A DNA stretch of 64,000 bases from Minisyncoccota bacterium (lineage in GTDB: Bacteria; Patescibacteriota; Minisyncoccia; Phycocordibacterales; UBA6065). The notes beneath the pieces were generated by a model, which ran no database searches, had not been told where the DNA came from, and worked only from the letters and a program-made list of their open reading frames with translations. Below, piece by piece: positions 18,818-36,423 of this stretch; within the stretch, counting starts at the first letter, position 1; each line of letters opens with the position of its first letter. A program made the position numbers and the translations under genes. The DNA lies in assembly GCA_035546035.1 (NCBI GenBank), contig DASZXC010000008.1, positions 252,265 through 316,264 of the forward strand, read 5' to 3'.

Positions 18818-19051
18818 CTACTTGATCATGTGCCTGTATTCTCGCGCGAATTTTCTTACCAGCCTTATTTTATACCACTGCCAGGGAGTAAGATGCCGTC
18901 GCCAGTGTCGTGAGAGATATTCTGCCTGATTGCAAGAGGCGCAGGCGTAGATGAACATCGATTCCGGTTCGTACTGGAGATGATATTTTACTTTCTTATT
19001 ATTGTCGCTGTAAGGGCGACGGCAAATCGGGCAGATTTCTATATCGCTCAT
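18818..19051 (-). CDS. Small zinc-ribbon protein, hypothetical
   Basis: Two CxxC pairs (CPIC...CASC); lower-GC segment next to tRNA-Gln. Confidence 0.4.
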   Translation of the reverse strand: MSDIEICPICRRPYSDNNKKVKYHLQYEPESMFIYACASCNQAEYLSRHWRRHLTPWQWYKIRLVRKFAREYRHMIK

Positions 19052-19082
19052 AGGCGTATTTTAACAAAATCTATTTTTCGTG

Positions 19083-19153
19083 TTGCCGGACTTGGAATCG
19101 AACCAAAATTTTCGCTTTCAGAGAGCGACGTCCTGCCTTTAGACGATCCGGCA
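19083..19153 (-). tRNA. tRNA-Gln (anticodon CTG), U1:A72 first pair
   Basis: Reverse complement TGCCGGA-TC-GTCT-AAAGGCA-GGAC-G-TCGCT-CTCTGAA-AGCGA-AAAT-TTTGG-TTCGATT-CCAAG-TCCGGCA-A; 71 nt, no CCA. Confidence 0.75.
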
Positions 19154-19271: not shown

Positions 19272-19490
19272 ATGTACCTATACTATCCTACGTTCGGCTT
19301 CTTCAACGTCCTTAATACCGTCTTCTGGATCATATTCGTTATATTCATCATCAAGCTCATTAAACGAGGCAGTAGGCCGTGGAATAACGTCTGGAGCGAT
19401 CGTTCTATGGATATCCTCCGCGAACGGTACGCTAAGGGCGAGATCAGCAAGGAAGAATTCGAGGCGCGAAAGAAAGACCTTCAGGGCTAG
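19272..19490 (+). CDS. SHOCT-domain membrane protein
   Basis: N-terminal TM plus C-terminal SHOCT motif ILRERYAKGEISKEEFEARKKDL. Confidence 0.65.
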   Translation: MYLYYPTFGFFNVLNTVFWIIFVIFIIKLIKRGSRPWNNVWSDRSMDILRERYAKGEISKEEFEARKKDLQG

Positions 19491-20005
19491 CGGTTCTCGA
19501 CGCTCTTTCGGAGCGATTGTATTTCGAGCGATAGGCTGACCCCGACGGCCGCGACGGCTGCCAGGAGCACGCCCGCATAGAACACGAGCCAGTTGAAATC
19601 AGATTCGACGTCAAAGCTCGCCGAAGCCTTGGCATCCGTCACCTGGGCATTCGAGACCCGCACCTCGATCGCGTGCCTCCCGGCCTTGGCTTTCTCCGGA
19701 ACGATGACGAAGTCAACGAACGACGCCTGGGTCTCGATCGCTTTGACGAACTCCGCATCGGCGATAGGCTTTCCGTCTTCGAGCACGCGGTACGATATCT
19801 GGAAATCGCGGCGCATGTCGTTTTCCGGGAACAGCGCCTCTATCTGGAAGTAAAGGCGCTCTCCGGCATGGACCGACGCATATTTTTCAGGGACATAGAC
19901 GGTGACCGACGCCGCGCGCGCCTTATCTGCGCCCAACGCCGCGCCGAAGACGGCGAATATCGCCGCGAGAAGAGCCGCCCTGATGATTGTCTTAGTCGTT
20001 TTCAT
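19487..20005 (-). CDS. Surface-operon gene 4: secreted protein with C-terminal TM anchor, hypothetical
   Basis: Signal peptide (MKTTKTIIRAALLAAIFAVFGAALGA), C-terminal helix; ATG 20005 chosen over TTG 20032; overlaps upstream gene stop by 14 nt. Confidence 0.45.
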   Translation of the reverse strand: MKTTKTIIRAALLAAIFAVFGAALGADKARAASVTVYVPEKYASVHAGERLYFQIEALFPENDMRRDFQISYRVLEDGKPIADAEFVKAIETQASFVDFVIVPEKAKAGRHAIEVRVSNAQVTDAKASASFDVESDFNWLVFYAGVLLAAVAAVGVSLSLEIQSLRKSVENR

Positions 20006-21002
20006 GCTTGATTCGGAAGACCATACTACCAATTACGGCTATAAGCGTTAGAGATGTTGCAAGGGCGAATCCATAGAGGATCATGAGCCGCGTCTCCCAG
20101 TGGAAGAGGTCGCGCTCGTCCGACGCGCTCGCGAGCACCCAGTAATTGTCGGCTTCAGGCCCCTGGCGAACGCCGGGAAGGACGATGTGGCGGTACGAGA
20201 ATACCCGTCCTTCTTCGGTGAAATTGCCCGCCGCCTCGTCTGAAAAGAGCCCTTTTACGACTGCTTCGGGGTAGAGCTCGGGAAGATACGACGACAGTTC
20301 CTTTCCGTTCTTCGATGCCAGGAATTTGCCGTCATGGTCGGCGAGGAATACCACTTCGTTTACGCGTTCGGCTCCGCGGATTTCGTCCAGGACGTATTTG
20401 AGGTCGAGCGTGAGCGCCAGGTATCCGTGCACGATGCCGTCGTATTCGACGGGAGCCATGATGTGGATGAAGGGCGTCCTGGTGCCGTCGGGGAACGTGT
20501 AGTCGAGGAGTCCCGATATCTGTATGTCGGTGCTGCTCGATGACCGCAGGTCGTCGAGGAGGTTCCTGAATTGCGGCTCTTCGTCTATGAACGATGCGAT
20601 AGAGTCGCTGGCCTCTGAATAGTCGTCGGCGACGAATCGGAAAGACTGGCCTTTGATAGGTTCGTAATAGACGTGGCAGTATTCGCGGTGAGAGGCGACG
20701 AAGGCTTTGAGGCGCTTTTCGAACGTAGCCTTGCTCACGGGCGATGCCGACGCATGGGCGGCGATGAGATCGGACATCCAGGCTACTTCGTCCCGCGCGT
20801 CTATGGCGAACCGTTCGAGCGACCGGGACAGGGAATCGAGCCTGTCTCCGGCGGTGTCGAGCGTCGCCGCGCGGGTCAGGCTGGCCGCCTGTTCGTACGC
20901 CAGGTACGCATGCAATGAAATAGAGCATGCGAGGACTATGAGGAGCGACAAAGCGATCCTTTTCGACGCATGGCTGTTAAAGATCCTTTTACCAGTTTTC
21001 AT
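19992..21002 (-). CDS. Surface-operon gene 3: bitopic membrane protein with large extracytoplasmic domain, hypothetical
   Basis: N- and C-terminal TM helices flanking about 270-aa domain; 14-nt overlap with upstream gene. Confidence 0.5.
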   Translation of the reverse strand: MKTGKRIFNSHASKRIALSLLIVLACSISLHAYLAYEQAASLTRAATLDTAGDRLDSLSRSLERFAIDARDEVAWMSDLIAAHASASPVSKATFEKRLKAFVASHREYCHVYYEPIKGQSFRFVADDYSEASDSIASFIDEEPQFRNLLDDLRSSSSTDIQISGLLDYTFPDGTRTPFIHIMAPVEYDGIVHGYLALTLDLKYVLDEIRGAERVNEVVFLADHDGKFLASKNGKELSSYLPELYPEAVVKGLFSDEAAGNFTEEGRVFSYRHIVLPGVRQGPEADNYWVLASASDERDLFHWETRLMILYGFALATSLTLIAVIGSMVFRIKHEND

Positions 21003-22188
21003 ACTTTTTCTTTTGATTTCTCCTCTTTACGGCCGCTAGTCCGTAATAGCGGTGGATGAACCAGGTAATAGCCGATATGATGGCCGCGATAAGCAGATAC
21101 CAGGGCAGTCTGCATCCGAACCACGCGAGAATGGCGACATGATCGACGAGCCATTCGAACGGCCACCAGAGGCCGCACATCATTCCCGTGCCGACGACGT
21201 TGAATCGCGCGTTCAGGGTCTCTCGCGAGCTCGTGCCGTACGTCACGTCGAGCGTGAGCCAGTACGATCCCGGTTCGAGGCCGAGCTCCGTCATGCGCTT
21301 GTTATAGACGATCTGGGTTTCGACGGACGTCGTTGCGGTCTCGGTGCGGCGGGTCGCGCCCGACTCGTCCTTGATGGAGAAGAGCATCGTCGCCGGAGTG
21401 CGGTCCGTGCCGAAATTGGTGAACGTGACGCGCGAGACGAGGTCGTCGCCGACGTCTATATGGTCGGGATCGATCGCGAGCGTGATGTCGAAGAGGAAGC
21501 GGGGAATAGATGCCGCCGTCGGTTCGCCGATCCCGCGCTTTGCCAGCACCGTCGCGGCCGCGAGCGCTTCAGGCGGAGCCGCCGTCGGAAGGATGATCGT
21601 CGTAGGCGCTGCGAGCACGCCTGATGACAGGCCCGGATTCGACGGATTATTCTGGGGAGCGTTTTGCAGGTTAGGGACGTCGCTTTTCGTGCCTGTTCCG
21701 CCGCCTCCGCCAGTCGGCGTTGTCGGTGGCGTCGCCGGAGGCGTAGCGGCAGGTTGCCAGTATGTTTTGACCTTGAAATCAGATGAGCCGCACGACGAAG
21801 TGTTGTCGCAGTTAAGGCTGATCTGCCCGGTAACGCTCGAATTTGCGTATCCGTGAAAGAATCCCTGCGAGTCTATCGTCGCGTTGGAAAAGTCTATGTA
21901 GCCGGAGCTCTCGCCCCAGGCATATCCCGACAGGTCCCCGTGAGCGTCGTTCGCGACATATGTCGACCCTGTCGGCGCGAGGCTTATCCAGCCCAGATTC
22001 TCGCTCCAGACATATCCGGTGAGCTTGGAATCCGTCACTTGGGCATTGCCCTCGTTCGTCCCGAAATTGAGCCAGCCCGCTTTTTCGCTCCATGCGTACG
22101 GATATGACGGATCTATTCCTCCGCCCGCGGCAAATGCGAATGCAGGGAAGAGAAGGGCTAGGAAGAGCGCGATGCGGAGAGTTTTCAT
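20989..22188 (-). CDS. Surface-operon gene 2: secreted protein with W-rich repeats, Pro/Thr linker and C-terminal TM
   Basis: Signal peptide; three repeats of form YAWSEKAGWLNFG / GYVWSENLGWISL / GYAWGESSGYIDF; PATPPATPPTTPTGGGGG linker; C-terminal hydrophobic anchor. Confidence 0.55.
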   Translation of the reverse strand: MKTLRIALFLALLFPAFAFAAGGGIDPSYPYAWSEKAGWLNFGTNEGNAQVTDSKLTGYVWSENLGWISLAPTGSTYVANDAHGDLSGYAWGESSGYIDFSNATIDSQGFFHGYANSSVTGQISLNCDNTSSCGSSDFKVKTYWQPAATPPATPPTTPTGGGGGTGTKSDVPNLQNAPQNNPSNPGLSSGVLAAPTTIILPTAAPPEALAAATVLAKRGIGEPTAASIPRFLFDITLAIDPDHIDVGDDLVSRVTFTNFGTDRTPATMLFSIKDESGATRRTETATTSVETQIVYNKRMTELGLEPGSYWLTLDVTYGTSSRETLNARFNVVGTGMMCGLWWPFEWLVDHVAILAWFGCRLPWYLLIAAIISAITWFIHRYYGLAAVKRRNQKKKYENW

Positions 22189-22189
22189 G

Positions 22190-25150
22190 TTATTGGACCA
22201 CGATGTAATTCCATTTATACGTTGCGGCGCCGCTGATGGTCACGCCAAGGCCGGTCACCGTAAAGCCTGTCGTGTTCGAGTTCACGTACAGGTTCAGGGC
22301 CGTAAGGCCGAGAGGGAGCTGTGCGGCGGCCGAGCTCGCCGGCGTAAGGACGACGAACGGCGCCGTGCCATAGGGCGTAGCGAATGTCAGCGTGACGAGC
22401 GCCCCCAATCCCAGGACGCCTCCTGAACCCAGCGTGAACGTGATCTCGCCCGCTGTGTCCGTGCCGCGCACCACGACGGAACCTCCGGAGCCAAGGGTGA
22501 GGGCCGCGCCTGCTGACGCGCTCGGCGTTCCGCCCTGGCCTTTGAGGTGGACGACCGATGCCGTGCCGCCGACGGAGAGCAGATCGTTCGGCGTGGACGA
22601 TCCTACGCCGACCTTGCCCGCGCTCGAGATAGTCATGGTCGAAGTGCCCGAGACGGTACTGCCATTCATGGCGTAATATGCCATCTGTCCGGCGAGGCCC
22701 GGAGAGACGACCGTCGATGACGCTAGGCCAAGCGACGACGTCGCGACCCATGCTGGCGATCCGCCGACGAGGGAGAGTATCGAACCGTTCGTCGTCGCGG
22801 AAAGTCTTGAAAGAGTCCCTGCGCCCGATGCATAGAGGATGTCGCCGACCGAATACGTCGTCTGTCCCGTGCCGCCGTGGCCCGCGTCTACGGCCGTACC
22901 GTTCCATATTCCCGCCGTTATGGTGCCCAGGGTCGTTATGGACGTCTGGCCGACATATGTCGGCGCGATATCCACTGACGGATTGCCCGATACGCCGTCG
23001 CCGTTCGTCAAGGTGATGCGGTTCGATGTGCCCTGGATCGTGCGCGCGGCATATGTGCCTGCGCCCGTGCGGACCAGCATTCCCGCCGTTCCTACGGCGC
23101 CGAGATTATCGAGGGCCGCGCCGTTGGCGACGCCGTATCCGGCGAGCGATGTCGGCGTTCCGGTAATTGATGACCACGTCGTCGAAGCATTAACGGTGAA
23201 AAGGGTCGAAGTCGCCACGGATACCCATGCCGATCCGTTCCAGGACAATATGTTTCCCGACGTTCCGCCCGCGGCATGGGCGATCGTTGACGAGCCGCTA
23301 ATGTACGACGCTACCTGGCTGTTGCTATAGAATTTATTATTCCCTTCGGTGATATCATCGGTGGTGATGCCGGTGAAATTGGCGTTCAGCGTGTTCCCCG
23401 ACCATGACAAGTGCGTGCCGGCCGTTATGCGCGCCGATGGGGATTGATAGAACGACGCCCATTCGGTCGTCGAAGCGACCAAAGGTATGGTGCGGCCCGA
23501 TGCGACCGATATGGTGTCGCCCGTGCGTGCGAGAGGGAATGAAAACAAGAGTGGCGATTCATACGTTCCTCCCGCGGCGAAAAGCGACGACGTCGCGACT
23601 GAAACCCATGCTGTGCCGTTCCAGGATAGGAGATTGCCCGAAGTCCCTCCCGCCGCGTGAGCTATTGTCGAAGAGCTGTTTATATATGTAGCGACTTGGC
23701 CGTTGCTGAAATATTTATTGGTGCCCTCGGGTATATCATCCGTCGTAATGCCTATGAAGCTTGCATTCAACGTGTTGCCGCTCCAAGACAGATGAGTTCC
23801 GGCGGTGATTCGTGATGACGGATTCTGAAGGAAGACATTCCATTCAGACGTTGAAGCCTGAAGCGGAATCGTATATCCCGCCGCAAGCGCGACAGAATTA
23901 GCTGAACGCGAAAGAGGAAACGAGAACGACAGAGGCAGTTCATAGTCAGTGCCCGATTGTGCCGCAGAGACGTTTCCCGATCCGTCGGCTTTGATGATCC
24001 CCGATACGGCGCCCAGATCCGCGCCGCCGCTATTCGATATATTAAGCGACGACGTCGCGACCCATGCAGGCGATCCGCTCACTATGGAAAGGATTTGGCC
24101 ATTCGAGCCTCCTGACGACAATCCGGTACCGCCGTGCGCGATGCCCAGAACCCCTGTCATGTGGCTTATGTCCAGAGCGCTTTCATCGACGGAGAACGTC
24201 GTCCCTGCGAGGTTCAATCCCGAACCCGCAGAATAAGCGATGCCTCCGCCCGTGACGCCGAGGGATGAAGTGGCGATCCATGTCGGCGCGCCCGCGACGA
24301 CAGACAGCACTTGGCCGTTCGATCCGACAGATGAAAGTCCGGTACCTCCATGCGCCGTCCCGAGGACGCCCGTCATATTGGCGATATTGAGAGCGCTTTC
24401 ATTTACCGAAAACGTCGTGCCGACGAGGCTCAGACCCGAACCTGCGGAATATACCGTGCCGCTGCTCGATACGCCCAGCGTCGTCGTCGAAACCCAGGTC
24501 GGCGCGCCGGATACGATTTTCAGGACCTCGCCTTCGTTTCCGTTTGGGAACGATGCGACTGTCGTCGGACCCGATGCATAGAGGAGCGCATTCGACGCGA
24601 ACGAAGTCTGTCCTGTGCCGCCTTTCGCGACGGGAAGGACTCCGCCTATGAGCGACAGGTCGAGCTGCGATTGATTGACCGAGAATACCGAGCCGACCAG
24701 CGTCAGTCCGGTTCCCGCGCTGTAAGTATTGGTCGTCGAGCCGGTCGTCGAAGCGAATGCCGTCGGATCGAGCCACATCGGTACGCCGCCCGATATGGTG
24801 AGCACCTGTCCGTCAGTGCCGACATGGAGCGCTGAAAGCGTATTGGCTGACGATGCGTAGATCACGTCGCCCGACGCATATGAATTGAGGCCGGTTCCGC
24901 CTTGGCCCGCAGAGAGAGGCGTCGTCAGGCCGGAAAGGGACGTAATATCGCCGTTCGCGGCCTTGGCGGCGTAATTGAATTGGACCGTGCAGTTGGTCGT
25001 GCTCGGAAGGCAATTCGGCGTCAGCGTTTCGGCCGGATTGTACGCGCTTCCCGGCGGAGCAGCGAGGGCGGCAAGCTGGCTTCCTCCGAACGAAGCGATT
25101 CCAAGCGCGAAAACATAAAGCCCCGCGCGCACGAATGTCCTGATTCTCAT
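22190..25150 (-). CDS. Surface-operon gene 1: 986-aa secreted repeat protein (tail-fibre-like GGTG repeats)
   Basis: Signal peptide MRIRTFVRAGLYVFALGIASFGGSQLAALA; more than 8 copies of about 45-aa repeat (...HGGTGLSS.GSNGQVLS.V.G.P.W..TSSLG...); two about 130-aa near-identical repeats (ELPLSFSFPLSRSAN... / ESPLLFSFPLARTGD...) also visible as DNA direct repeats 23340-24060. Confidence 0.7.
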   Translation of the reverse strand: MRIRTFVRAGLYVFALGIASFGGSQLAALAAPPGSAYNPAETLTPNCLPSTTNCTVQFNYAAKAANGDITSLSGLTTPLSAGQGGTGLNSYASGDVIYASSANTLSALHVGTDGQVLTISGGVPMWLDPTAFASTTGSTTNTYSAGTGLTLVGSVFSVNQSQLDLSLIGGVLPVAKGGTGQTSFASNALLYASGPTTVASFPNGNEGEVLKIVSGAPTWVSTTTLGVSSSGTVYSAGSGLSLVGTTFSVNESALNIANMTGVLGTAHGGTGLSSVGSNGQVLSVVAGAPTWIATSSLGVTGGGIAYSAGSGLNLAGTTFSVDESALDISHMTGVLGIAHGGTGLSSGGSNGQILSIVSGSPAWVATSSLNISNSGGADLGAVSGIIKADGSGNVSAAQSGTDYELPLSFSFPLSRSANSVALAAGYTIPLQASTSEWNVFLQNPSSRITAGTHLSWSGNTLNASFIGITTDDIPEGTNKYFSNGQVATYINSSSTIAHAAGGTSGNLLSWNGTAWVSVATSSLFAAGGTYESPLLFSFPLARTGDTISVASGRTIPLVASTTEWASFYQSPSARITAGTHLSWSGNTLNANFTGITTDDITEGNNKFYSNSQVASYISGSSTIAHAAGGTSGNILSWNGSAWVSVATSTLFTVNASTTWSSITGTPTSLAGYGVANGAALDNLGAVGTAGMLVRTGAGTYAARTIQGTSNRITLTNGDGVSGNPSVDIAPTYVGQTSITTLGTITAGIWNGTAVDAGHGGTGQTTYSVGDILYASGAGTLSRLSATTNGSILSLVGGSPAWVATSSLGLASSTVVSPGLAGQMAYYAMNGSTVSGTSTMTISSAGKVGVGSSTPNDLLSVGGTASVVHLKGQGGTPSASAGAALTLGSGGSVVVRGTDTAGEITFTLGSGGVLGLGALVTLTFATPYGTAPFVVLTPASSAAAQLPLGLTALNLYVNSNTTGFTVTGLGVTISGAATYKWNYIVVQ

Positions 25151-25219: not shown

Positions 25220-25235
25220 GGTCAAGAAAAAGTCA
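25220..25235 (-). promoter_or_regulatory. Shared 16-bp motif, site 1 (coding-strand TGACTTTTTCTTGACC) about 70 nt upstream of surface-protein operon
   Basis: Identical 16-mer GGTCAAGAAAAAGTCA also at 28859-28874; direct repeat TGAC-N7-TGAC (11-bp periodicity) typical of OmpR/PhoB-family binding sites. Confidence 0.45.
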
Positions 25236-27197
25236 GCCGGCATAAGCTTCCAGAAACTGCATCATGGTCTCGCGGTCGGCGAGGGCTTTGCGCGCGGCGC
25301 TTTCAAGGGGCGTCAAAAGGGAGTTCAGATACGAATGCTCTTTGAGCGCCGGATTGGTTTCGAGAGACGATCGCGCTTTGTCCGCATGGAAGAGCACCGC
25401 CGCCGCGACGTCGCGTATGGTCTTGTCCCAGAAAACGGAACGGAGGGCAGACATGTCTTCGCTCAGGTCGCATTCGCGCTCGCCGGTCTTCGCTTTCCAC
25501 TGAGAAAGGCATCGAACGCTCGCTGGGTTGAAGAATCCGCGCTCGAGGTCCTTCTGCCAGTCATGAGCGTCGTCATTCAATTGCCGCGCGACGAGATAAT
25601 TCTTGAAAAAGGCGAGCAGGCTCGTTATCTCGCGGGAATCAGGGCTGAAACCGCGGCGGATGAGCATGGTGATCGGTCCCAATGCATGCCCGATCGACTT
25701 TTCGGCGATGACGTCGAGATTTTTATAGTCGGGAAGGCTTTCGACGTCGATTATCTTTCCGGCGAATCTGGTCTGGTGCCTTTCCCAGGCATTCGCTGAT
25801 TCGATCTTGTCCATGAGCGCCGTGAATACGCCGCGCTCCGCGGCCGGGATCATATCGGTATATATGTGCACGACCTCGCGGAGCATCATGTTCGCCAGCG
25901 GCACGTGCTCGGGTTCGCCTTCGTCGTCCAAAATGTCGTCGTATATGCGGTATGCGATCCAGCCGAACAGATTCGCGGCGCCGAGCGTGACTGCTTCGCC
26001 AGCGTCTGATTTTTCCCGTGCGGGCGGGACGCCGATCGATTTTTCGAAATGATAGGGAAGGAGCGTGATCTGCCGGCCCGGATCGCCGAGCGTGAGCATG
26101 CGTATGTAGCGGCCGAGCGATTCTATCTGCCGCATGCTCTGCCCGCCGCATCGGTTAGCGACCCTGTTCACGATCGCTTCATGGACCGAATCATCATACG
26201 TCCGGTCGTCCTGCGCGCGATCGTTCCGCGCCTTTATGTCTTGCGTGGCAGAATTCAATCGAACGTACATTGCCAGAGCTTCGACGCAGAACGCCGCGGT
26301 CAGAGCGGGCGCACCGCTGTACAGGATCGAGCTGCGCGCTTCTTCTATATAGATAGGGTCGGCTTTCCATTCGCGTTCGTCGCAGATCTGTTCAAGCCTT
26401 TTTGCCATGATTCCTAATCGCGAATCGTCTGCATGCCGGAAAGTGCCCGAATCGGCATATGTATACCCGGCCAGAGTCGTTAAAGCGCAGGCGGTTTCAA
26501 GCGCCGTATTGCAGAGTTCGTCTGTTTGCCGCAGGGCGACGATATCGGCGACGGCTTTTTCGGCGGCATTTTGCGGAATGCTTCGTTCCAAAAATCTGGC
26601 CATGAAATACAGCATGACCACGGGCGACGCATAATATTTTGACCGATACGTTCCCGTTTCTATGCGCGACAAACAGAGCGCTTTCAGATTCGGCAAAACG
26701 ATATGTTGCGTTTTCAGGAACGTTCCGATATTGGCATTCACGACCGGGTCGATATCGTGCCAGCGGCGTCGGTCCGCGTCAGGTACGATACCGGAGACGA
26801 GCCACGTCTCGTACGGGCCGCCCGGCTTCTCCTCGGCAGAAATCAGCGCTTCAGTGAATCCTGCCAGCGCCGCGCCGTCTATTTTTTCCGGCATGTATGC
26901 GGCCAACGCCTGCAACGCGCACGACGTATCGTCCAGGTCGTCGGGGTACGGCTTGGCCCGCGCCTCGTCGCAGTCGCGGCGCCAATAGTTCCATGTCCAT
27001 CGGGCGTTGCGCTCTTTTAATATGAATTCGCAGCCTTTGCGTATGATATCCGCCGCGACCGGTTCGTTCTGTACGCCGCGCAAGGCGAGCAATATAAGAG
27101 ACGTATGAAAGACATTATCAAACCCGCCGTCCTTCTTCTGCGAGGACTCGATATGGCGCAAGGCCTTCTGTATTGATCTTTGAGGATTGCTTTCCAT
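25233..27197 (-). CDS. Two-domain terpene-synthase-like protein: N-terminal prenyltransferase/squalene-cyclase repeat domain with DxDDT[AS]-like motif plus C-terminal isoprenoid-synthase-fold domain with two Asp-rich motifs
   Basis: N-term: QKKDGGF and EKPGGPYETW PFTB/QW-like repeats, DLDDTS (class II cyclase DxDDTA-like). C-term: YDDILDDE (DDxxD) and RQLNDDAHD (FQxxDDxxD-like) about 115 aa apart. Confidence 0.55.
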   Translation of the reverse strand: MESNPQRSIQKALRHIESSQKKDGGFDNVFHTSLILLALRGVQNEPVAADIIRKGCEFILKERNARWTWNYWRRDCDEARAKPYPDDLDDTSCALQALAAYMPEKIDGAALAGFTEALISAEEKPGGPYETWLVSGIVPDADRRRWHDIDPVVNANIGTFLKTQHIVLPNLKALCLSRIETGTYRSKYYASPVVMLYFMARFLERSIPQNAAEKAVADIVALRQTDELCNTALETACALTTLAGYTYADSGTFRHADDSRLGIMAKRLEQICDEREWKADPIYIEEARSSILYSGAPALTAAFCVEALAMYVRLNSATQDIKARNDRAQDDRTYDDSVHEAIVNRVANRCGGQSMRQIESLGRYIRMLTLGDPGRQITLLPYHFEKSIGVPPAREKSDAGEAVTLGAANLFGWIAYRIYDDILDDEGEPEHVPLANMMLREVVHIYTDMIPAAERGVFTALMDKIESANAWERHQTRFAGKIIDVESLPDYKNLDVIAEKSIGHALGPITMLIRRGFSPDSREITSLLAFFKNYLVARQLNDDAHDWQKDLERGFFNPASVRCLSQWKAKTGERECDLSEDMSALRSVFWDKTIRDVAAAVLFHADKARSSLETNPALKEHSYLNSLLTPLESAARKALADRETMMQFLEAYAG

Positions 27198-28653
27198 TTC
27201 CTCCTGGTGGATGAGCGCGAGGGAAGACGATGGTGAAATTCGAGCCTTCCCGCTCGACGCTTTTGACCGCTATGGTCCCTTTGAAATCTTTGACGACGAT
27301 GTCCTGCGCATTCGATAGTCCGATGCCCATCCCTCGGTGTCTCTCTTTGGTGGTGAAGAACGGATCGAATATCTTGCCGATGACGGCCGCCGATATGCCG
27401 CAGCCATGGTCTCGCACGATGATCTTGATATCGCCCTTGTTTTCGATCAGGCGCACGGCGACGATCCTCTGATCGAACGGCAATGCAGTATTGTTGTACG
27501 AATCGATCGCGTTCGATATGAGGTTTCCGATGACGTGCTGGAGCTTTGTCGGATTGCCGAACGTCGAAACGCGCTTGTCCGCCGCCCAGTCTATGCGGAC
27601 TTTCGTCTGCGCCGCTTTATACGAGAGAAGCGCCAATGCCTCTTCGATCTCGCCGTTCACCGAGAACTCTTCCTCATGGTCGGGCATGGTCAGCTGCTTT
27701 CGGACCGTCGTCACGAATCGCTCGAGCTTCCGCGAAGCCTGGACCGCCCGGCCGACGCTTTCCCTGATATCCTGCATATCGGGGTGGAGCGAATCCTTCA
27801 GATTGTTGACGTTCGCCGCCACCGCCGAAAGGGGATTCATCAGGTCGTGGAATATTCCCGACGACAGCCTGCCGAATTCGGCGAAATGATAGAGCTGCGC
27901 CAATTTTTCCGCCTGCGCCTGGCGCAATTCGCGGGTACGCTCGACGACCGTCGATTCGAGCGACTCGTTCTTCTCTATGAGCGCCCTTTCCGACCTTCGC
28001 GCCCGGGCGAGCGAGTTCTCTATGTCCTTGTTCGAAAGCCAGGCGATCAATTCGATAGCGAAGAAGAACAGGCAATATTTGATGACGTCTACGCTCTCGT
28101 GCGTCTCCTGCATCCATTTCGTGTCTATCGTGATGGCGCCCGCATCGCCCATGAACCTGCAGACGATGAGAGATATCATGACGATGGCGCTGAAGGCGAG
28201 GCTGAATCTAGTGCCGATGAGCGCCCCTGCCATGATGATAAGGAGCGCGTACATGAGGAGCGTGGACGGCAGGTCCGTGCCCCAGCGATAGACGCCGTAC
28301 GTCGTCGCGGCATAGAAGAACGTGATGGCGAAATACGAGACGAGGTCGAAATAGCCCTTGCGCGAAGCGATATATCCCGCGATGAACAGGGCGGGGAATA
28401 TGCTGAAAACGAAGAACGGTATGCCCTCGTATCCCGGCCCTGCTTCGATCTGGCTGATGAGGACGAGCGTATCGAGCGCGAGCAAGAGGCATATCGACCC
28501 TACGAGTATGACGTTCAGGATCGTCTCCCTGCGGCGGTCGTCTTCGGTCGTCGAGCGCGGCTCGAAGAATATCCGGTATAGAAAACGGATACTTCTTTTA
28601 AAGAAACGTTCGGAGCTTTGAGCGTCCTCGTTTTTCCGGAGAGAAGTATCCAT
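27118..28653 (-). CDS. Sensor histidine kinase (polytopic membrane sensor domain)
   Basis: Six N-terminal TM helices, HisKA H-box (IFHDLMNPLSAV), HATPase_c N/G1/G2 boxes (GNLISNAIDSY, DHGCGIS, GMGIGLS); 3-prime end overlaps next gene by 80 nt. Confidence 0.85.
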   Translation of the reverse strand: MDTSLRKNEDAQSSERFFKRSIRFLYRIFFEPRSTTEDDRRRETILNVILVGSICLLLALDTLVLISQIEAGPGYEGIPFFVFSIFPALFIAGYIASRKGYFDLVSYFAITFFYAATTYGVYRWGTDLPSTLLMYALLIIMAGALIGTRFSLAFSAIVMISLIVCRFMGDAGAITIDTKWMQETHESVDVIKYCLFFFAIELIAWLSNKDIENSLARARRSERALIEKNESLESTVVERTRELRQAQAEKLAQLYHFAEFGRLSSGIFHDLMNPLSAVAANVNNLKDSLHPDMQDIRESVGRAVQASRKLERFVTTVRKQLTMPDHEEEFSVNGEIEEALALLSYKAAQTKVRIDWAADKRVSTFGNPTKLQHVIGNLISNAIDSYNNTALPFDQRIVAVRLIENKGDIKIIVRDHGCGISAAVIGKIFDPFFTTKERHRGMGIGLSNAQDIVVKDFKGTIAVKSVEREGSNFTIVFPRAHPPGGNGKQSSKINTEGLAPYRVLAEEGRRV

Positions 28654-28802
28654 TTTCCCTTAGTCCTTAGGCCTCATCGGTCCATGGGTACATGGTAGCC
28701 GACGCGAGGGCAGCCTCCCGTGCCTCTACGGCGCTTCGCGAAGAAGCGTCGGTGAGGATCTTTTCGACAACGTTGTTCATATGCATGAGAAATGAGTTGC
28801 TA

Positions 28803-28837
28803 AGGAACAGATGCCTATTCGACGATAGGTTGTTCCT
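28803..28837. repeat. Nested palindrome in regulator-kinase intergenic gap
   Basis: AGGAACAG-atg-CCTATTCGACGATAGG-ttg-TTCCT: outer arms AGGAACA/TGTTCCT, inner arms CCTAT/ATAGG. Confidence 0.4.
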
Positions 28838-28858
28838 TCGAAATTGTCGGGCCTGCCC

Positions 28859-28874
28859 GGTCAAGAAAAAGTCA
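28859..28874 (-). promoter_or_regulatory. Shared 16-bp motif, site 2, just downstream of response-regulator stop and about 200 nt upstream of kinase start
   Basis: GGTCAAGAAAAAGTCA identical to 25220-25235. Confidence 0.45.
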
Positions 28875-28887
28875 AATTATAGTAAAA

Positions 28888-29556
28888 CTAATCGTCCTTT
28901 ATCTTGTATCCGCGGCCGGGAATGTTGTAGATCAGCTTTTCCCGCTTCTTTTCGAGCTTTTTGCGCAAGTTGACGATGTGTGTCTCTATGGTCTTCGAGA
29001 GGGGGTCGCTCTCCATATCCCAGACGTGCTCCATGATGGTGCCGCGCGATACGACTTTGCCCTTGTTGCGGAGGAGGAGCTCGAGGAGGGCGAATTCTTT
29101 CCTGGTGAGATACACGTCTATGCCGTTCTTGGTCACTTCCTGGCTTCCGGCATCGAGGAGCACGCCGCCCGCGGCGAACGTCGTCGGTTCGACTTTGTAC
29201 GTGCGGCGGAGCAGGGCGCGCATGCGCGATACGAGCTCCTGATGGGAATACGGCTTGGTGATATAGTCGTCGGCGCCGGAATCGAGGGCAAGCGCCTTGT
29301 CGTCCACGTGGGCATTGACCGAGAGCATCAGGATAGGGACGTGGCGCCCGACGCGGCGGATCTCCTGGCAGACTTCGAGACCGGTCTTTTTCGGCATCGA
29401 ATGATCCAGGATGATCAGGTCGTATTCGTTGGTGCGGGCCATGAACGAACCGGCCGCGCCGTCCGCCGCAGTGTCTACGGCAAAACATTCTGCCTGGAGT
29501 GTGGCTTTGAGGAGGTCTCTGGTCTCCGCTTGGTCGTCCACGACGAGTATCCTCAT
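28888..29556 (-). CDS. OmpR-family response regulator (receiver plus winged-helix DNA-binding domain)
   Basis: MRILVVDDQ, phospho-acceptor context LIILDHSMP, C-terminal trans_reg_C (RLELLLRNKGKVVSRGTI...NIPGRGYKI); start at ATG 29556. Confidence 0.85.
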   Translation of the reverse strand: MRILVVDDQAETRDLLKATLQAECFAVDTAADGAAGSFMARTNEYDLIILDHSMPKKTGLEVCQEIRRVGRHVPILMLSVNAHVDDKALALDSGADDYITKPYSHQELVSRMRALLRRTYKVEPTTFAAGGVLLDAGSQEVTKNGIDVYLTRKEFALLELLLRNKGKVVSRGTIMEHVWDMESDPLSKTIETHIVNLRKKLEKKREKLIYNIPGRGYKIKDD

Positions 29557-29651
29557 GGGATTAGTAGTGTTGCCCAAAGTATATACCACCAGGGGTTTTT
29601 GGCTATTTAGCCGTTATCCACGGCCCTCCGCGCCGTGCCGCTCCCGCTTCC

Positions 29652-31309: not shown

Positions 31310-32832
31310 ATGGCCACCGACGTAGTACTGCGGTTCGACGAAGTGTCGTTCGAATACGGGCACAATAAGCCGATCCTCGACGAGGTGAGCTTTTCGGTGC
31401 GCCGCGGCTCGAAGATCACCATCATGGGCCAGAACGGCGCGGGCAAGTCGACGATATTCGGCATGATATTGGCGGCAGCGGGGCAGAATGCGGGCCAGGG
31501 TCAGACTACGCCGAAAATTACGAGTGGCAACATCCACATCACCCGCGGCCTTTCGATCGCCATCGCGCGGCAGGTCATTCCGCGACCGGAATTGGCGCTT
31601 TCCGTCAGGGACTTTTTCCAAAAAGCCCTCATGGACACGAATGGCGGCAAAAAGTGTACGATATCGACCCGCGCATGGACGAAGCGCTCGATGCGGTGAA
31701 CTTTCCATTGCCTGCGACGGGAAAGGACCGCGTTGTCAGCTCGTTCTCGGGCGGGCAGCAGGCGCGATTTTTGCTAGCTTCGGCCTTGGTCCAGAATCCG
31801 GATATCCTGTTGCTCGACGAGCCGACGAACAATCTGGACAAAGCGGGTATCGAGCACCTGACCGCATTCCTCAAAGCGTATCCGAAGACCGTCATCGTCA
31901 TTTCGCACGAGGCGGATTTCCTCAATTCATTCACGGACGGCGTCTTGTACCTGGATGTGCATACCAAGAAAGTCGAGCAGTATCAGGGCGACTATTATGA
32001 CGTGCTCAAAGACATAACTGCGCGCGTCGATCGCGAAAATCGCGCCAATGCGTTGCTCCAGAAAGAGATCCAGGCCAAGAAAGACCAGGCCAATGCATTC
32101 GCCATGAAGGGCGGCGGGCTTCGCTTGGTCGCCAAGCGCATGCGCGAGAAAGCCGAAGAGCTCGAAGAAGACATCGTCGAGGTGCGCAAGGAAGACAAGA
32201 CCATCAAGCCGTTCACCATTCCTGCGCAGCCTGAATTCACGGGCGTGATCATGGAGATCAAGGGATATAAGGTATTCAAGAACCATAAGCCGGTGAAAAG
32301 GACATGCGCGGTGAAATTGAAGCGCCGCCAGCACCTGCTTTTGAAGGGTCCGAACGGCATAGGGAAGTCGACGCTACTCGAAGCTTTGGCGACGGGCAAG
32401 AATTCAGATGGCAGCGCGAACGAAGGCGCGACGATCGCATCGGGCGCGCGCGTCGGATACTATCGCCAGGATTTTTCGACCCTGAATTTCGAAGATACGG
32501 TGCACGAATCGCTGCTGTCGGCGTCGGCGACGCATATCGAACAGCATATCCGCGCGGTCGCGGCAGGATTTTTGATACATGCAGACATGATGGATACCAA
32601 GATCGGCGCATTGTCCGAAGGCCAGAAAGGCCTCGTGGCATTTGCGCGATTGGTCCTGCAGAAGCCCAGCCTCCTCATTTTGGACGAGCCTACGAACCAT
32701 ATTAATTTCAGGCACATTCCTGTGATCGCCAAGGCGCTGGATGAATATGAAGGTGCGATGATATTGGTGAGCCATGTGCCGGAATTTGTGTCGCAAATTC
32801 GGATCGATGAGACGTTGGATTTGGAGGGGTAG
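31310..32832 (+). pseudogene. ABC-F family ATPase (two ABC domains) interrupted by a +1/-1 frame change in an A5 run (31649-31653); frameshifted gene, possible sequencing error
   Basis: ORF 31310-31699 (Walker A GQNGAGKST) and ORF 31654-32832 (signature SGGQQAR, second Walker A GPNGIGKST, LSEGQKG, ILDEPTNH) are contiguous in different frames; one extra A restores NGGKKVYDIDPR. Confidence 0.7.
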
Positions 32833-32998
32833 TCAGGTTGTCTCATTTTTTAATATAACGTATTATCCGTCTGTGAACTTATGGCTCCACACTGAGGAGA
32901 GGCCAAGAATAAACACTATTAAATTAATAGTGGCTAGGTTTGCTTCAGATAGAAATTTAAAATCCGTCTTTTCTGGCAATGAGAAAATCTGGCCAATA

Positions 32999-34264
32999 AT
33001 GAAAGACGGTTTGTTTACATTTAAATACAAGATTGAGGGTATTAAATGTGAAAATGTTGAAAATATTTTTATAACCATTATTAGCGGTTCTTCAAGTTTT
33101 ACAGATTATCTGGTCTTTTATTCAGAAAACCCGCCGCTTGTAACTGATTCACCTCTTTATCTCATTGAAGAGACTAAGACTGGTGATAGTGAGAGCCGTA
33201 ACACGGCAGCGTATCAACGTTCTTCAAAATTTGTCTATGCCAGCTTCTTTTATCCCAAGGTTCCTAAAATCATGTTGTACAGCCTAAGGGTTGCGCAGAG
33301 AAAGGAATCGACCTCAACTTCTGTCTTCGGTACAAAACTTCTGGCGACGCTAGGTGTTGAGATTTTGGGCAGAATATTACAGAAAGACGCCTACTCAGCA
33401 TTTTCAAATATTGATGAATTGATCGAGCTTAAGAATGAAATGTCCCTTCCTCATTACGGGCTTGCTGTGCGGATAAATAAGGTAGGGGATGTAATTAAAA
33501 TATCTGCAAGGCTTGAAAAATCGGGCTATCTTTCTCATGATCCCAATATCGGTATGACGACAGTGATCAGTGCGTGTCTTAGAAAATTAGGTTGGAAGGG
33601 CCGCATCGTCATAACTGATCATGGCTTGGCGAGTCAAAAAAATGTAGGAGTAAGAAACAAATTTATTGCTATTGCCAATCAGCTCGGTGTTGAGCTCGAA
33701 AATCTAACCATACCCAGGGTTTCTCTTCATGGAGAATATTGGAAGGTTGAGGCAAACAAGGAGAAAATAGGAACAATTTTTACTAGTATTCTCTGCGAAG
33801 AATTTACGGACTCGGTTGCTATCTATGAAAATCATGGAGGCTGTGAAAGGGGCTATTTTATTTCTGAAAAAAATAAAGAAAATATAGAATATCTTGCTGT
33901 CCCAAAATTTTCAGATAGAGAAAAATACAAGGCGGGGGACAAAAGTTATATCATTTCTATTCCCGATCTAGTCCTCTACGATAGAAAAAGAGACATAATC
34001 ATTAATGCGGAAGGCAAGGTTTTTGCAAAGCGGGAGGAGGGTTATAAGGAAATAGGTGGGTTTGACTCGTTCGAAGATAAATTTATTAAAAAGTATTATC
34101 CGGGCTCAGAAATTTCAAGGACGCTCATACTTTCAGGCAGTAAAGACGAGGCGATTGATAATCCAATTACAGGCTTACTCTTAAATCAAGACGGATTAAT
34201 CGTCTTGGGGGAAAAGACACCTCTCTTGTTCAAGGAGGCTGTGGCGAATCTACTTTCTTTGTAG
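32999..34264 (+). CDS. Putative Type II restriction endonuclease of low-GC R-M island (two PD-(D/E)xK-like motifs)
   Basis: Low-GC coding; motifs TDSPLYLIEETK and IPDLVLYDRKRDIIINAEGK; convergent with and overlapping 3-prime end of methyltransferase gene; start at first ATG inside AT-rich region rather than the extended ORF start 32774. Confidence 0.4.
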   Translation: MKDGLFTFKYKIEGIKCENVENIFITIISGSSSFTDYLVFYSENPPLVTDSPLYLIEETKTGDSESRNTAAYQRSSKFVYASFFYPKVPKIMLYSLRVAQRKESTSTSVFGTKLLATLGVEILGRILQKDAYSAFSNIDELIELKNEMSLPHYGLAVRINKVGDVIKISARLEKSGYLSHDPNIGMTTVISACLRKLGWKGRIVITDHGLASQKNVGVRNKFIAIANQLGVELENLTIPRVSLHGEYWKVEANKEKIGTIFTSILCEEFTDSVAIYENHGGCERGYFISEKNKENIEYLAVPKFSDREKYKAGDKSYIISIPDLVLYDRKRDIIINAEGKVFAKREEGYKEIGGFDSFEDKFIKKYYPGSEISRTLILSGSKDEAIDNPITGLLLNQDGLIVLGEKTPLLFKEAVANLLSL

Positions 34265-35314
34265 TAAATATAGCTGTTCTTTTATATGCTTTTTTGTCGC
34301 AGACTCCCCTTTGTTATTGCTTTTGAAACGGAGATAGTTGATTTCCTTCATTTGAACGCTTCCAAACTCACTAAGTATTTTTAGAATCTCTGCCTGAGGC
34401 ATAATACCTTCAGAGTTGTAACTAAGAAGTAGGCATTTGTATTTTGCTTCACTCACTACAGTTTTTAATGCTCTGAGTGCACTATTTGGATTACAGAATT
34501 CTGACTTCTGTTCACTGTAATCTCGCATACCCGTAATCCCCTTTATCGCTGGATTGTCATATCTCGCAATTGTCTCCAGTAAATGATAATTTGGTGCATA
34601 CTGTCTTTCGTTATATGGAGGATCAAGGTAGAGAACATCAACCTTTAAGTCCGATATTAAATCCATGCTATTTTTGTTATAGACACGGTAATTTCTCTTC
34701 CCGGTGTAAAGCTTTATAGGTTTTATCTCGAATCTTTTCAAAGATCTCGGGTCGTATTTTTTTAAGAAAGCGGCATATACACCAGAAATATTTGCGTAAA
34801 AGGGTACACTTTCGATCAAACATGCCAGTAGCACAAAATATTCATTTTCTGAAATTATTTTTTCTTTTCTCCATAATTCAATCTGTTGGCGTTGGGCATC
34901 AATTTTCTCCGCGTTCTTTCCAGTTAAATATTTACGTATGAATTGCTCGTTCCGCGTTCCTTCTTCAGTGTAGTTTTCATATATAAACCCTTTGATACCG
35001 CCCAAATTATTAAGATAGAACAAGACCTGTTCTAGGGAATTTGAGAATAGAGCCTCTGATGCGGTTGTTCCGATCCTGTTTAAAAGCCTCGCAAATCTAA
35101 CCTCCTCATTATTTTCTATATAAGCTTTCTGTAATACGAAAGAGAAGTACATTAGATCCGATGAAAGGACAGAGTAACCCTTTTCCTTAAAGAATCTACC
35201 TACGTTTGATGTACCGGAAAAAAAGTCACAAAAGGTGCCGTCTTGGAATCCTAAATCAACGACGGTTGAGTGTATTTTCTCCAGGAGCTTTTCTTTGTTT
35301 CCGATGAATCTCAT
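34250..35314 (-). CDS. N6-adenine DNA methyltransferase (Dam/D12-class, DPPY motif)
   Basis: N-terminal MRFIGNKEKLL, FxGxG region and catalytic VLYLDPPYNE; start overlaps stop of upstream methyltransferase (TAATG). Confidence 0.8.
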   Translation of the reverse strand: MRFIGNKEKLLEKIHSTVVDLGFQDGTFCDFFSGTSNVGRFFKEKGYSVLSSDLMYFSFVLQKAYIENNEEVRFARLLNRIGTTASEALFSNSLEQVLFYLNNLGGIKGFIYENYTEEGTRNEQFIRKYLTGKNAEKIDAQRQQIELWRKEKIISENEYFVLLACLIESVPFYANISGVYAAFLKKYDPRSLKRFEIKPIKLYTGKRNYRVYNKNSMDLISDLKVDVLYLDPPYNERQYAPNYHLLETIARYDNPAIKGITGMRDYSEQKSEFCNPNSALRALKTVVSEAKYKCLLLSYNSEGIMPQAEILKILSEFGSVQMKEINYLRFKSNNKGESATKKHIKEQLYLLQRK

Positions 35315-36423
35315 TAGTAGTTGGTGATTAATACCTCAGACACTTTTCCTCTTTTGGTTGTATTTGAGTTGAGAGAACGACTAGATTGTACCGTATAAAT
35401 GTTGAAATCTTTATAGAGATCTCTTATGAACTTACAATCCGAATTCGAAAGCATTACATAAGCGCCTTTTTTATGTAATTCAGTGACGGTTTTTCTGAGT
35501 CTTATTTGATCTTCCTCGTAAAACCTTTCTTTGGTATACCTCGTAAAGTCTGAAGTCTTCGAGATCGGGTAGTAGGGAGGATCAAAAAAAACGAGGTCCT
35601 TTTTTGCTACATTTTTCGTTGCTTCCTCAAAATCAGAACATTCCAAAGAAGTCTTCTTGAGGGTTTTTGAAGCTTTTAGAATTGTCTCTGCGTCGCATAT
35701 AACCTTATCTAGTGAACTACCAATAGGGACATTAAATTGCCCTTTTCCATTTACTCTGTAAATACCATTAAAACAGGTTTGGTTTAAATAAATTGCCCGG
35801 GCGGCTATTTCATAGTTTCTGAAATGGCTAAAAAGATTGTAATTTCTATCCAAATTTCTTATGTGCTCGTAGAGTTTTTCGGAGTGTCTTTCTTTTAGTT
35901 TTTTCAGGGTATCAATTACTAGTTCAGGAAAATCACGGACAGCTTTATAGGTTTCAAGTAATTCTCGGTTATTGTCATTGAGAAATGATTTTTCTGGATT
36001 AAGCTCAAAGAATATCGCGCCCCCTCCAAGGAAGGGCTCAAAATAGCGATTATATTTTTTTGGGAAGTAATTTTTGTATTGTGCAACCATGCCTCTCTTA
36101 CCTCCAACCCACTGTAAGAAAGGTTTAGGACGATTTTTTTCGTGATTTTCTGCCTCTCTCTGTGAATTGTTGGTTAACGGAAATTTCTCGAGTTCCTTTT
36201 TTAAGATGGATTCTTTAAAAGAGATTAAATTCGATGGGTCACATTGTAGATAGTTACAAAGGGTATCGATGGTCGTCAGATCTATTCTTGTTGTTTTCTT
36301 GTTAGCAATTGCGTGTCCTTGCTGGTAACTAAGACCAGTATCTTTACATAATTTATAAAGAGTTTTCCCCTCCCTCTCTAAAATTTTCTTTAGGTTTATT
36401 TCTATACTCATTATGTTCTTCAT
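35314..36423 (-). CDS. HTH(XRE)-fused N6-adenine DNA methyltransferase (Dam-like, DPPY)
   Basis: N-terminal HTH (LYKLCKDTGLSYQQGHAIANKK), Dam motif I FLQWVGGKRGM / FEPFLGGGAIFFEL, catalytic VFFDPPYYP. Confidence 0.8.
   Translation of the reverse strand: MKNIMSIEINLKKILEREGKTLYKLCKDTGLSYQQGHAIANKKTTRIDLTTIDTLCNYLQCDPSNLISFKESILKKELEKFPLTNNSQREAENHEKNRPKPFLQWVGGKRGMVAQYKNYFPKKYNRYFEPFLGGGAIFFELNPEKSFLNDNNRELLETYKAVRDFPELVIDTLKKLKERHSEKLYEHIRNLDRNYNLFSHFRNYEIAARAIYLNQTCFNGIYRVNGKGQFNVPIGSSLDKVICDAETILKASKTLKKTSLECSDFEEATKNVAKKDLVFFDPPYYPISKTSDFTRYTKERFYEEDQIRLRKTVTELHKKGAYVMLSNSDCKFIRDLYKDFNIYTVQSSRSLNSNTTKRGKVSEVLITNY

Follow-up and report, generated by a model that had tools for sequence, protein, structure and literature searches.

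Cell-encoded adhesive fibres derived from phage fibres are a known kind of surface protein, and the members that appear closest in function to the protein described here are the mosaic adhesive trimer (MAT) fibres of Bdellovibrio bacteriovorus. As presented in PMC10769870, a MAT fibre opens with a signal peptide, after which come a conserved N-terminal domain of ~130 amino acids (aa) presumed to bind the predator's surface, a shaft formed by an intertwined trimer related to phage fibres, and one of a diverse set of C-terminal tips that includes lectin folds, with S74 and non-S74 subfamilies. The same account states that MATs localise to the predator surface, that one member binds prey surface glycans, and that the Peptidase_S74 chaperone domain ensures trimerization of phage fibres and spikes (PMC10769870). 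How ultrasmall episymbiotic bacteria identify and hold their hosts is, according to PMC12206443, largely unknown beyond type IV pili. Here we describe a fibre gene in a stretch of 64,000 nucleotides (nt) from a Minisyncoccota bacterium of the Patescibacteria (contig DASZXC010000008.1; hereafter the window, whose own numbering is used throughout). The gene is unannotated and encodes a secreted phage-fibre-like mosaic that ends in a lectin-like tip; host attachment in its phylum is poorly known, and the protein probably belongs with the adhesive fibres named above. A literature search found no description of tail-fibre-like adhesins in Patescibacteria.

With some reserve, we think it probable that the protein is a non-enzymatic, Sec-secreted mosaic fibre of a Patescibacteria bacterium of the Paceibacterota type, composed of phage tail-fibre modules and displayed as an adhesin. 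Like the MATs as portrayed in PMC10769870, it is cell-encoded, has a signal peptide and is related to phage tail fibres; a conserved element stands right after the signal peptide and a long repetitive shaft follows, and both families place variable C-terminal tips on a common scaffold and comprise S74-bearing as well as S74-less members. It differs in its leader, a Cys-loop of 25-55 aa in place of the ~130-aa beta-rich MAT domain, in its producer (Patescibacteria here, a Gram-negative predator for MAT), and in showing no sequence homology to solved MAT fragments in PDB searches with the protein and with a tip profile. It also has a dedicated downstream partner gene, which the portions of PMC10769870 drawn on here do not describe for MATs. 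Trimer and surface location are reported for MATs in that source and are proposed for the window fibre. The parts of the fibre gene, and the partner gene, are as follows.

22190..25150, minus strand: fibre gene, 986 aa, ATG start (open reading frame (ORF) listing and sequence reading)
25061..25150, minus strand: signal peptide, aa 1-30, with basic n-region, hydrophobic core and ALA/A cleavage-type motif (read by inspection)
24980..25060, minus strand: mature N-terminal leader, aa 31-57, APPGSAYNPAETLTPNCLPSTTNCTV, with Cys47 and Cys54 (alignment with relatives)
24752..24919, minus strand: long GGTG unit 1, aa 78-133, preceded by the DITSLSGLTTPLS motif (hidden Markov model, HMM)
24473..24640, minus strand: long GGTG unit 2, aa 171-226 (HMM)
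24260..24475, minus strand: 72-aa repeat copy 1, aa 226-297, holding a short GGTG unit (self-blastn, HMM, pairwise alignment)
24044..24259, minus strand: 72-aa repeat copy 2, aa 298-369 (pairwise alignment, ortholog comparison)
23558..23938, minus strand: 127-aa repeat A, aa 405-531, with a half GGTG unit (GGTSGNLLSWNGTAWVSVATSSL) at its end (self-blastn, HMM, alignment)
23177..23557, minus strand: 127-aa repeat B, aa 532-658 (self-blastn, alignment)
22727..23038, minus strand: shaft module shared with phages, together with long GGTG unit 3, aa 705-808, NRITLTNGDGVSGNP..YVGQTSITTLGTI..GHGGTGQTTYSVGDILYAS... (PHROGs, tblastn, IMG/VR scan)
22193..22633, minus strand: C-terminal beta-sandwich tip, aa ~840-986 (HMMER search, AF2, Foldseek, Pfam of the family)
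20989..22188, minus strand: partner gene, 399 aa (ORF listing, Pfam, alignment)

The original prediction had proposed a secreted protein of 986 aa at 22190-25150, and this ORF was confirmed: it starts with ATG on the minus strand, and its N-terminus reads as Sec signal-like, passing from MRIRTFVR through a hydrophobic core to ALA/APPGS. Outside the signal peptide, inspection of the sequence revealed no segment resembling a hydrophobic membrane anchor, nor does the fibre itself contain an LPXTG motif, a membrane helix or any wall-binding domain that could be recognised. Glycine, serine, threonine and alanine together make up 53% of the protein and charged residues 5.7%, while its two cysteines, Cys47 and Cys54, both fall within the leader. 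The identical protein, starting at an alternative GTG and so 980 aa long (P0001), is also encoded on an independent contig from a metagenome. The only Pfam-A match of the full fibre at E<=1 was DUF6087 at 13.5 bits, with no match to the S74 C-terminal chaperone domain (PF13884); NCBIfam and PADLOC scans gave no significant family, and none of these three scans detected a toxin or enzymatic domain. PDB sequence searches were empty for the protein and for the tip profile, and the sole match in PHROGs was phrog_30390, of function unknown. Only P0002 (913 aa, 71% aa identity) aligns with the fibre end to end. All other relatives share modules only, and those that are named belong to the Patescibacteria group (Vogelbacteria, Parcubacteria, Kaiserbacteria, Pacebacteria and Paceibacterota). 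Some of them, in Vogelbacteria and Parcubacteria, bear the NCBI name 'tail fiber domain-containing protein', and PF13884 (Peptidase_S74) occurs in seven of the relatives listed (P0010, P0022, P0037, P0049, P0069, P0098 and P0105). A search of genome contigs with the whole fibre protein returned no relative.

Part of the shaft is shared with phages. An IMG/VR scan with a 75-column alignment (A5) of the module at aa ~705-780 located the shaft module (aa 705-808) in at least 465 confirmed viral contigs at 50-80% identity, the best 80 of these matches being 47-81% identical. In the two viral contigs that were checked, the module-bearing protein matches phrog_30390, the query's own PHROG; one of the two proteins also matches a 'tail fiber assembly' PHROG, and neighbours of the module match PHROG families named 'tail associated lysin' and 'tail fiber protein'. 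A tblastn search of 50,697 phage records gave matches in 39, confined to aa ~650-775 and lying mostly in T4-like cyanophage proteins annotated 'structural protein' or 'fiber', with a Bradyrhizobium phage tail fibre protein in addition. The likeness to phage tail fibres that had been noticed earlier is thus upheld by the shaft module and by the fold of the tip, but not by the families then named, since Phage_fiber_2, BppU and collagen families gave no Pfam match to the fibre at E<=1. With phage fibres that end in gp53-like_C (PF21882) or H-type lectin (PF09458) tips, the window fibre shares the shaft module and a GGTG unit at 50-80% identity, and its tip superposes on uncultured Caudovirales proteins at 1.9 Å; unlike them, it has a signal peptide and a cellular context, passes no Pfam threshold, and lies near no tail, baseplate or fibre-assembly genes. 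The S74 'tail fiber domain-containing proteins' of the same phylum, represented by P0037 of Candidatus Vogelbacteria, have GGTG units and the 127-aa module, whose pattern common to both proteins is TTD.L.EG.N.Y.., IPH.GG..G..LSW.G..W. They differ in that the window fibre lacks S74 and ends in a lectin-like tip, while P0037 lacks both the APPGS leader and the GW partner described below. Phage fibre tips and H-type lectins are generally trimeric. Because some relatives bear S74 and the tip resembles both of these kinds of protein, the window fibre is, by analogy, probably a trimer as well.

The C-terminal tip recurs in many other proteins. When aa 800-986 were compared by HMMER with 1.84 billion representatives, 1,273 proteins matched at E<=1e-3; in those of the listed matches that form a single stretch, the final ~130 aa of the query correspond to the very C-terminal end of proteins of 107 to ~1,360 aa. 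These include small secreted proteins consisting of little besides the tip, as well as proteins in which it is fused to Gly_rich_2 or to pectate-lyase / endosialidase-N-like domains. AlphaFold2 (AF2), supplied with an alignment of 57 relatives, models the tip as a beta-sandwich with a mean predicted local distance difference test score (pLDDT) of 79.8, and >80 across most of aa ~840-986. Among viral models, Foldseek matched this fold to two uncultured Caudovirales proteins (E 1e-10 and 4.5e-9), on whose C-terminal domains it superposes with a root-mean-square deviation of 1.9-2.0 Å at 34% identity. Weaker viral matches were to a Marseillevirus 'putative tail fiber', to gp53-like C-terminal proteins such as that of LIMEzero (E 3.6e-3), and to a phage protein of BFVD with an 'H-type lectin domain' (E 0.017, template modelling (TM) score 0.55). 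The matches in the PDB are weak but agree in theme, and comprise the C-termini of the LKA1 gp49 and phi297 gp61 tailspikes, R-pyocin fibres, Helix pomatia agglutinin (E 0.018, probability 0.99, TM 0.48 normalised to target), the Bdellovibrio Bd2439 fibre tip (8ol4/8onf; E 0.02, TM 0.25) and discoidin II (E 0.11). Across the tip family, H_lectin (PF09458) gave sub-threshold matches in 16 of 58 members, the best at 1.5e-4, and Gp53-like_C (PF21882) weak matches in three of the 58, that of P0141 scoring 17.1 bits against a cutoff of 24.9 bits. The tip is therefore described here as weakly H-type-lectin or gp53-like in kind and is filed as a member of neither family.

At the other end of the mature protein, the leader comes immediately behind the A-x-A site in each of the 15 aligned relatives, whose bodies are otherwise different and whose C-termini differ. 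Its consensus in these relatives is (A/V/S/T)PP(G/D/T)S.Y.PGETL.P.C.PG..NC.V, and the conserved pattern given for the window fibre is APPGS.Y.P.ETL.P.C...C.V; the 62-aa N-terminus as sole query, being too short, found no relative. The partner encoded downstream starts with a signal peptide and a conserved GW domain (window 21739-22134), behind which come a Pro/Thr linker, a beta-rich middle part and a C-terminal membrane helix. The GW domain spans ~130 aa with three hairpin-like 'GW(I/L)NF / GYAW' repeats and a Cys pair at its end; its identity across fibre loci is 44-79%, with 33 invariant columns in eight sequences, and a PDB sequence search with the partner profile was empty. A GW gene lies 0-15 nt downstream of a leader-bearing fibre in the window and at loci L001/L002/L014, L003, L004/L005, L006, L007/L017, L013, L015, L016 and L022, and at L011 a single gene separates the two. 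The C-terminal part of the partner differs by locus, being a membrane helix in the window and typically PG_binding_1 repeats elsewhere. At L012, a leaderless S74 fibre locus taken as control, there is no GW gene within 8 kb. The 61 GTDB loci with a GW domain are nearly all from Patescibacteria. GW homologs at L021, L031, L060, L061 and L062 stand on short contigs binned as Gammaproteobacteria, one of them 505 bp long and from a Candidatus Thiomargarita nelsonii assembly; such contigs may be mis-binned or epibiont-derived Patescibacteria DNA.

We propose a model in which the mature fibre, made up of a Cys-bracketed N-terminus, a G/S/T/A-rich shaft of diverged GGTG units and a beta-sandwich tip, would stand on the cell surface as an elongated, probably trimeric fibre. 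Its conserved N-terminus would hold to the translationally coupled envelope protein encoded downstream, which would join a conserved GW domain to an anchor that varies with the lineage (a membrane helix in some, peptidoglycan-binding repeats in others); that this partner is in fact the fibre's dock on the envelope has, in our estimate, about one chance in three. The distal tip would bind a surface glycan on another cell, plausibly the episymbiont's host, and the repeats would set the length of the shaft, their number changing on evolutionary timescales only and not through a present-day recombination switch. More tentatively, and with more doubt than belief, many Patescibacteria may be suggested to carry a two-gene 'fibre plus dock' module, in which a domesticated phage receptor-binding fibre with the mature N-terminus APPGS.Y.PGETL.P.C...C.V is joined to a co-translated GW envelope protein that captures this N-terminus and anchors it by a variable C-terminus in membrane or peptidoglycan, while exchangeable tips set the host. 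If so, the module would be a counterpart of the MAT fibres in the candidate phyla radiation, and its lectin-like tips would decide which host cell an episymbiont attaches to. Even short of that, the phage receptor-binding modules, the lectin-like tip and the recurrent envelope-anchored neighbour make the fibre a concrete candidate for host recognition, and the re-use of phage fibres as adhesins, established in Bdellovibrio, would extend to a second, unrelated lineage.

Several observations weigh against this reading. The tip of the window fibre itself has no Pfam match at E<=0.1, and all its PDB fold matches are weak (E 0.01-0.2, TM about 0.3-0.5), for which reasons lectin activity is a guess. 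The full-length AF2 monomer (mean pLDDT 47.5) is confident in the tip only, aa 1-835 being modelled without confidence and the shaft at <50; such a result would fit an obligate oligomer and poor alignment of repetitive sequence equally, and the model was kept out of the fold search and of conclusions on shaft architecture. The GW partner family is much broader than the fibre family and not specific to fibres: most of the 61 GTDB GW loci have an unrelated gene upstream, leucyl-tRNA synthetase and a MurJ-like gene being examples. Nor do all fibres have the partner, since two leader-bearing proteins, P0012 and P0097, have no GW partner nearby. The pairing is therefore strong from the side of the fibre and weak from that of the partner, and could reflect nothing more than co-regulation of surface genes.

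Some room is left for a structural fibre of the envelope or coat, S-layer-associated or forming a sheath, that has no specific ligand and whose tip serves only folding or oligomerisation. The very G/S/T/A-rich, low-charge composition would suit such a fibre, the neighbouring genes encode envelope proteins, and the tip is not hypervariable in the two available orthologs, where it is 74% identical; the gene would then be that of an ordinary unannotated surface protein. Yet the same tip is found at the C-terminus of unrelated bodies, Gly_rich_2 and pectate-lyase-like proteins among them, in a distribution reminiscent of the exchangeable receptor-binding tips of Bdellovibrio MAT fibres, and H-type lectins are suggested both by its fold and by weak similarities in sequence. 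We consider a coat fibre unlikely on these grounds, though it deserves to be kept in mind.

In periscope-type and other fibrillar adhesins with tandem repeats, these form a secreted stalk that carries an adhesive domain at its end, and the repeats of the window fibre raise the question of whether it is a length-variable adhesin of this type, with DNA repeats that recombine often and a population showing varied fibre lengths. Repeat units were delimited by pairwise aligners and by an HMM built from GGTG units. Self-blastn of the gene gave two strong direct-repeat pairs, as had been claimed, at only 71% and 69% identity (E 4e-31 and 1e-25), and the internal repeats are far beyond chance. The HMM detects three long GGTG units of 56 aa each (aa 78-133, 171-226 and 753-808), two short ones of 37 aa each (aa 262-298 and 334-370) that lack the central 'Y..GD.lYAS..n.L..L' segment, and two half-units, both inside the 127-aa repeats; this count of five full and two partial units replaces the 'more than eight' originally given. 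The two direct repeats put at ~390 nt do exist, with a length of 381 nt and about 150 nt away from where they had been placed, but the ~130-aa segments that they encode are not near-identical: repeats A and B agree at 69% of aa and 63% of nt positions, rising to 71% of nt over a 238-nt core. Similarly, the ~220-nt pair reported near 24095-24465 is real and resolves into units of 216 nt at 24260-24475 and 24044-24259, with 74% aa and 69% nt identity. Paired copies share exact nucleotide words of no more than 11-13 nt, distant units of no more than 18 nt, and Tandem Repeats Finder reported nothing on the gene.

Comparison with P0002, the only ortholog available for it, shows one 72-aa unit where the window gene has two, the alignment gap of ~70 aa falling at about aa 304-373 of the fibre and the single unit being about equally similar to both window copies; both 127-aa repeats are present in each protein. 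Copy-number variation between orthologs, which had been put forward as a check, is thus seen for the shorter repeat and not for the longer. Repeat identities within the gene and between the orthologs are alike, roughly 64-74% in all comparisons, and because the copies within the gene have diverged as far as the orthologs, the duplications that gave the shaft two copies each of the 72-aa and the 127-aa unit are old. The number of 72-aa copies has changed at least once, and nothing in the sequences points to ongoing recombination. Exact words of 11-18 nt are likely too short for efficient homologous recombination. With copies 63-71% identical in nt and no exact match >18 nt, the repeats are therefore not active recombination substrates. 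The original prediction of recombinational size variation is left with weak support, namely the difference of one 72-aa unit between orthologs, and repeats driving such variation are not supported. As for the periscope-type adhesins, the fibre resembles them in that repeat number differs between it and P0002, and its repeats are in-frame tandem duplications; it departs from them in having few, heterogeneous and diverged repeats and no LPXTG or covalent wall anchor, and the independent contig that encodes the identical protein likewise speaks against frequent length change. Overall, a length-variable periscope-type adhesin seems very unlikely. A repeat of another sort was noted in the giant proteins P0137 (4801 aa), P0138 (5709 aa), P0140 and P0143, in which sequence like the fibre's pre-tip segment (aa ~800-900, with the motif '..VG(I/V)G(T/S)..P...L.V.G') recurs in 13-27 stretches; the segment is for this reason itself a widespread repeat unit.

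It is less likely still that the protein is a released lectin or bacteriocin-like targeting protein that is not bound to the producing cell. The fibre's want of its own LPXTG, membrane helix or recognised wall-binding domain would agree with release, but no toxin or enzymatic domain accompanies the lectin-like tip, and retention on the cell is favoured by two features, the close translational linkage with a partner that is anchored and the conservation of the mature protein's N-terminus. Least likely of all, and hardly credible, is that the protein is part of a virion, as the tail fibre of a phage that is integrated or present as contamination: although its modules are common to hundreds of viral contigs and annotated phage fibre proteins, the fibre has a predicted cleavable signal peptide, the flanking genes scanned have no phage-family match, the GC of the gene equals that of its flanks, cellular gene order is kept in the 71%-identical ortholog locus, and in many Patescibacteria genomes the gene stands beside one for a protein anchored in the membrane or in peptidoglycan. 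Among further candidates, a prophage tail fibre was rejected by signal peptide, cellular context and conserved synteny, a contractile injection system or tailocin fibre by the lack of other tail genes, and an anti-phage defence system by a negative PADLOC scan.

The genomic context is cellular, not that of a prophage. The window contains six tRNA genes, and the neighbours include MacB/HlyD efflux genes, ApbE, NUDIX, an ABC ATPase and a two-component system; GC over the fibre gene is 0.59, as in the flanks, and no phage families were found in PHROGs for the fibre's two downstream genes or in Pfam for the other neighbours scanned. The remaining genes of the locus are listed below.

19487..20005, minus strand: small envelope protein with signal peptide and C-terminal membrane helix (ORF listing, junction reading)
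19992..21002, minus strand: 336-aa membrane protein with Cache-like extracytoplasmic domain (Pfam scan, junction reading)
25233..29589, minus strand: upstream same-strand genes for a 654-aa protein, a histidine kinase and a response regulator (Pfam, ortholog locus)
27118-28653, minus strand: histidine kinase (Pfam)
28888-29589, minus strand: OmpR-type response regulator (Pfam)

The gene junctions turned out as first described, with 1 nt between fibre and partner and 14-nt overlaps thereafter. Fibre stop and partner start form TAA-C-ATG; the partner and the 336-aa gene overlap by 14 nt at 20989-21002 on the minus strand (ATGAAAACTGGTAA), and the 336-aa gene and the small envelope gene by 14 nt at 19992-20005 on the same strand, from the ATG at 20005 (ATGAAAACGACTAA). 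ATGAAAACTGGTAA and ATGAAAACGACTAA are nearly the same, the upstream proteins ending in ..EN(W/D) and the downstream ones starting with MKT. P0002 was found on two contigs with the same gene order as each other, in which a histidine kinase and a 644-aa protein precede the fibre and proteins of 395, 335 and 167 aa follow it; there the 1-nt spacing and the 14-nt overlap are kept, and the third junction is an 11-nt overlap. The same locus (L014) is also present in a GTDB genome labelled Candidatus Paceibacterota bacterium SMAG_U6182. The fibre gene had been called the first of a translationally coupled operon. Its coupling to the genes downstream stands, but its first position is unproven, because same-strand genes lie upstream and the 82-nt spacer that separates the 654-aa gene from it contains no consensus promoter or terminator; the upstream same-strand genes may share its transcription unit.

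The 654-aa protein encoded directly upstream of the fibre (window 25233-27197, minus strand; 644 aa in the ortholog locus) is conserved in that locus and has no Pfam or PADLOC family. Its PDB search gave an insignificant match to drimenol (terpene) synthase (E 0.26), and it contains the DDxxD-like motifs YDDILDDEGE and NDDAHDW; in its listed extent the ORF shares 80 nt with the end of the histidine kinase gene, so that translation may in fact begin further in. On the far side of the cluster, some 330 nt beyond its final gene, is a tRNA-Gln(CTG) gene (window 19082-19153, minus strand), followed by a small Cys-rich ORF at 18818-19051. At window ~32000-36000 is a low-GC island (0.37-0.45 against 0.55-0.60 elsewhere) that may have been horizontally acquired; its ORFs are at 32774-34264 (plus strand), 34250-35314 and 35314-36423 (both minus strand), and a 496-aa ORF among them has no Pfam match. 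A second large surface protein, of 1335 aa and with no blastp similarity to the fibre, is encoded at window 44744-48751 on the plus strand. It comprises a signal peptide, Gly_rich_2, six repeats of ~100 aa with the pattern …HHGLE..NGGAW.NAGAW…YDFRAYAS.DGG..YVYS, PG_binding_1 and a multi-helix hydrophobic C-terminus; elsewhere, in P0146 and P0152, Gly_rich_2 is fused to the tip domain of the fibre.

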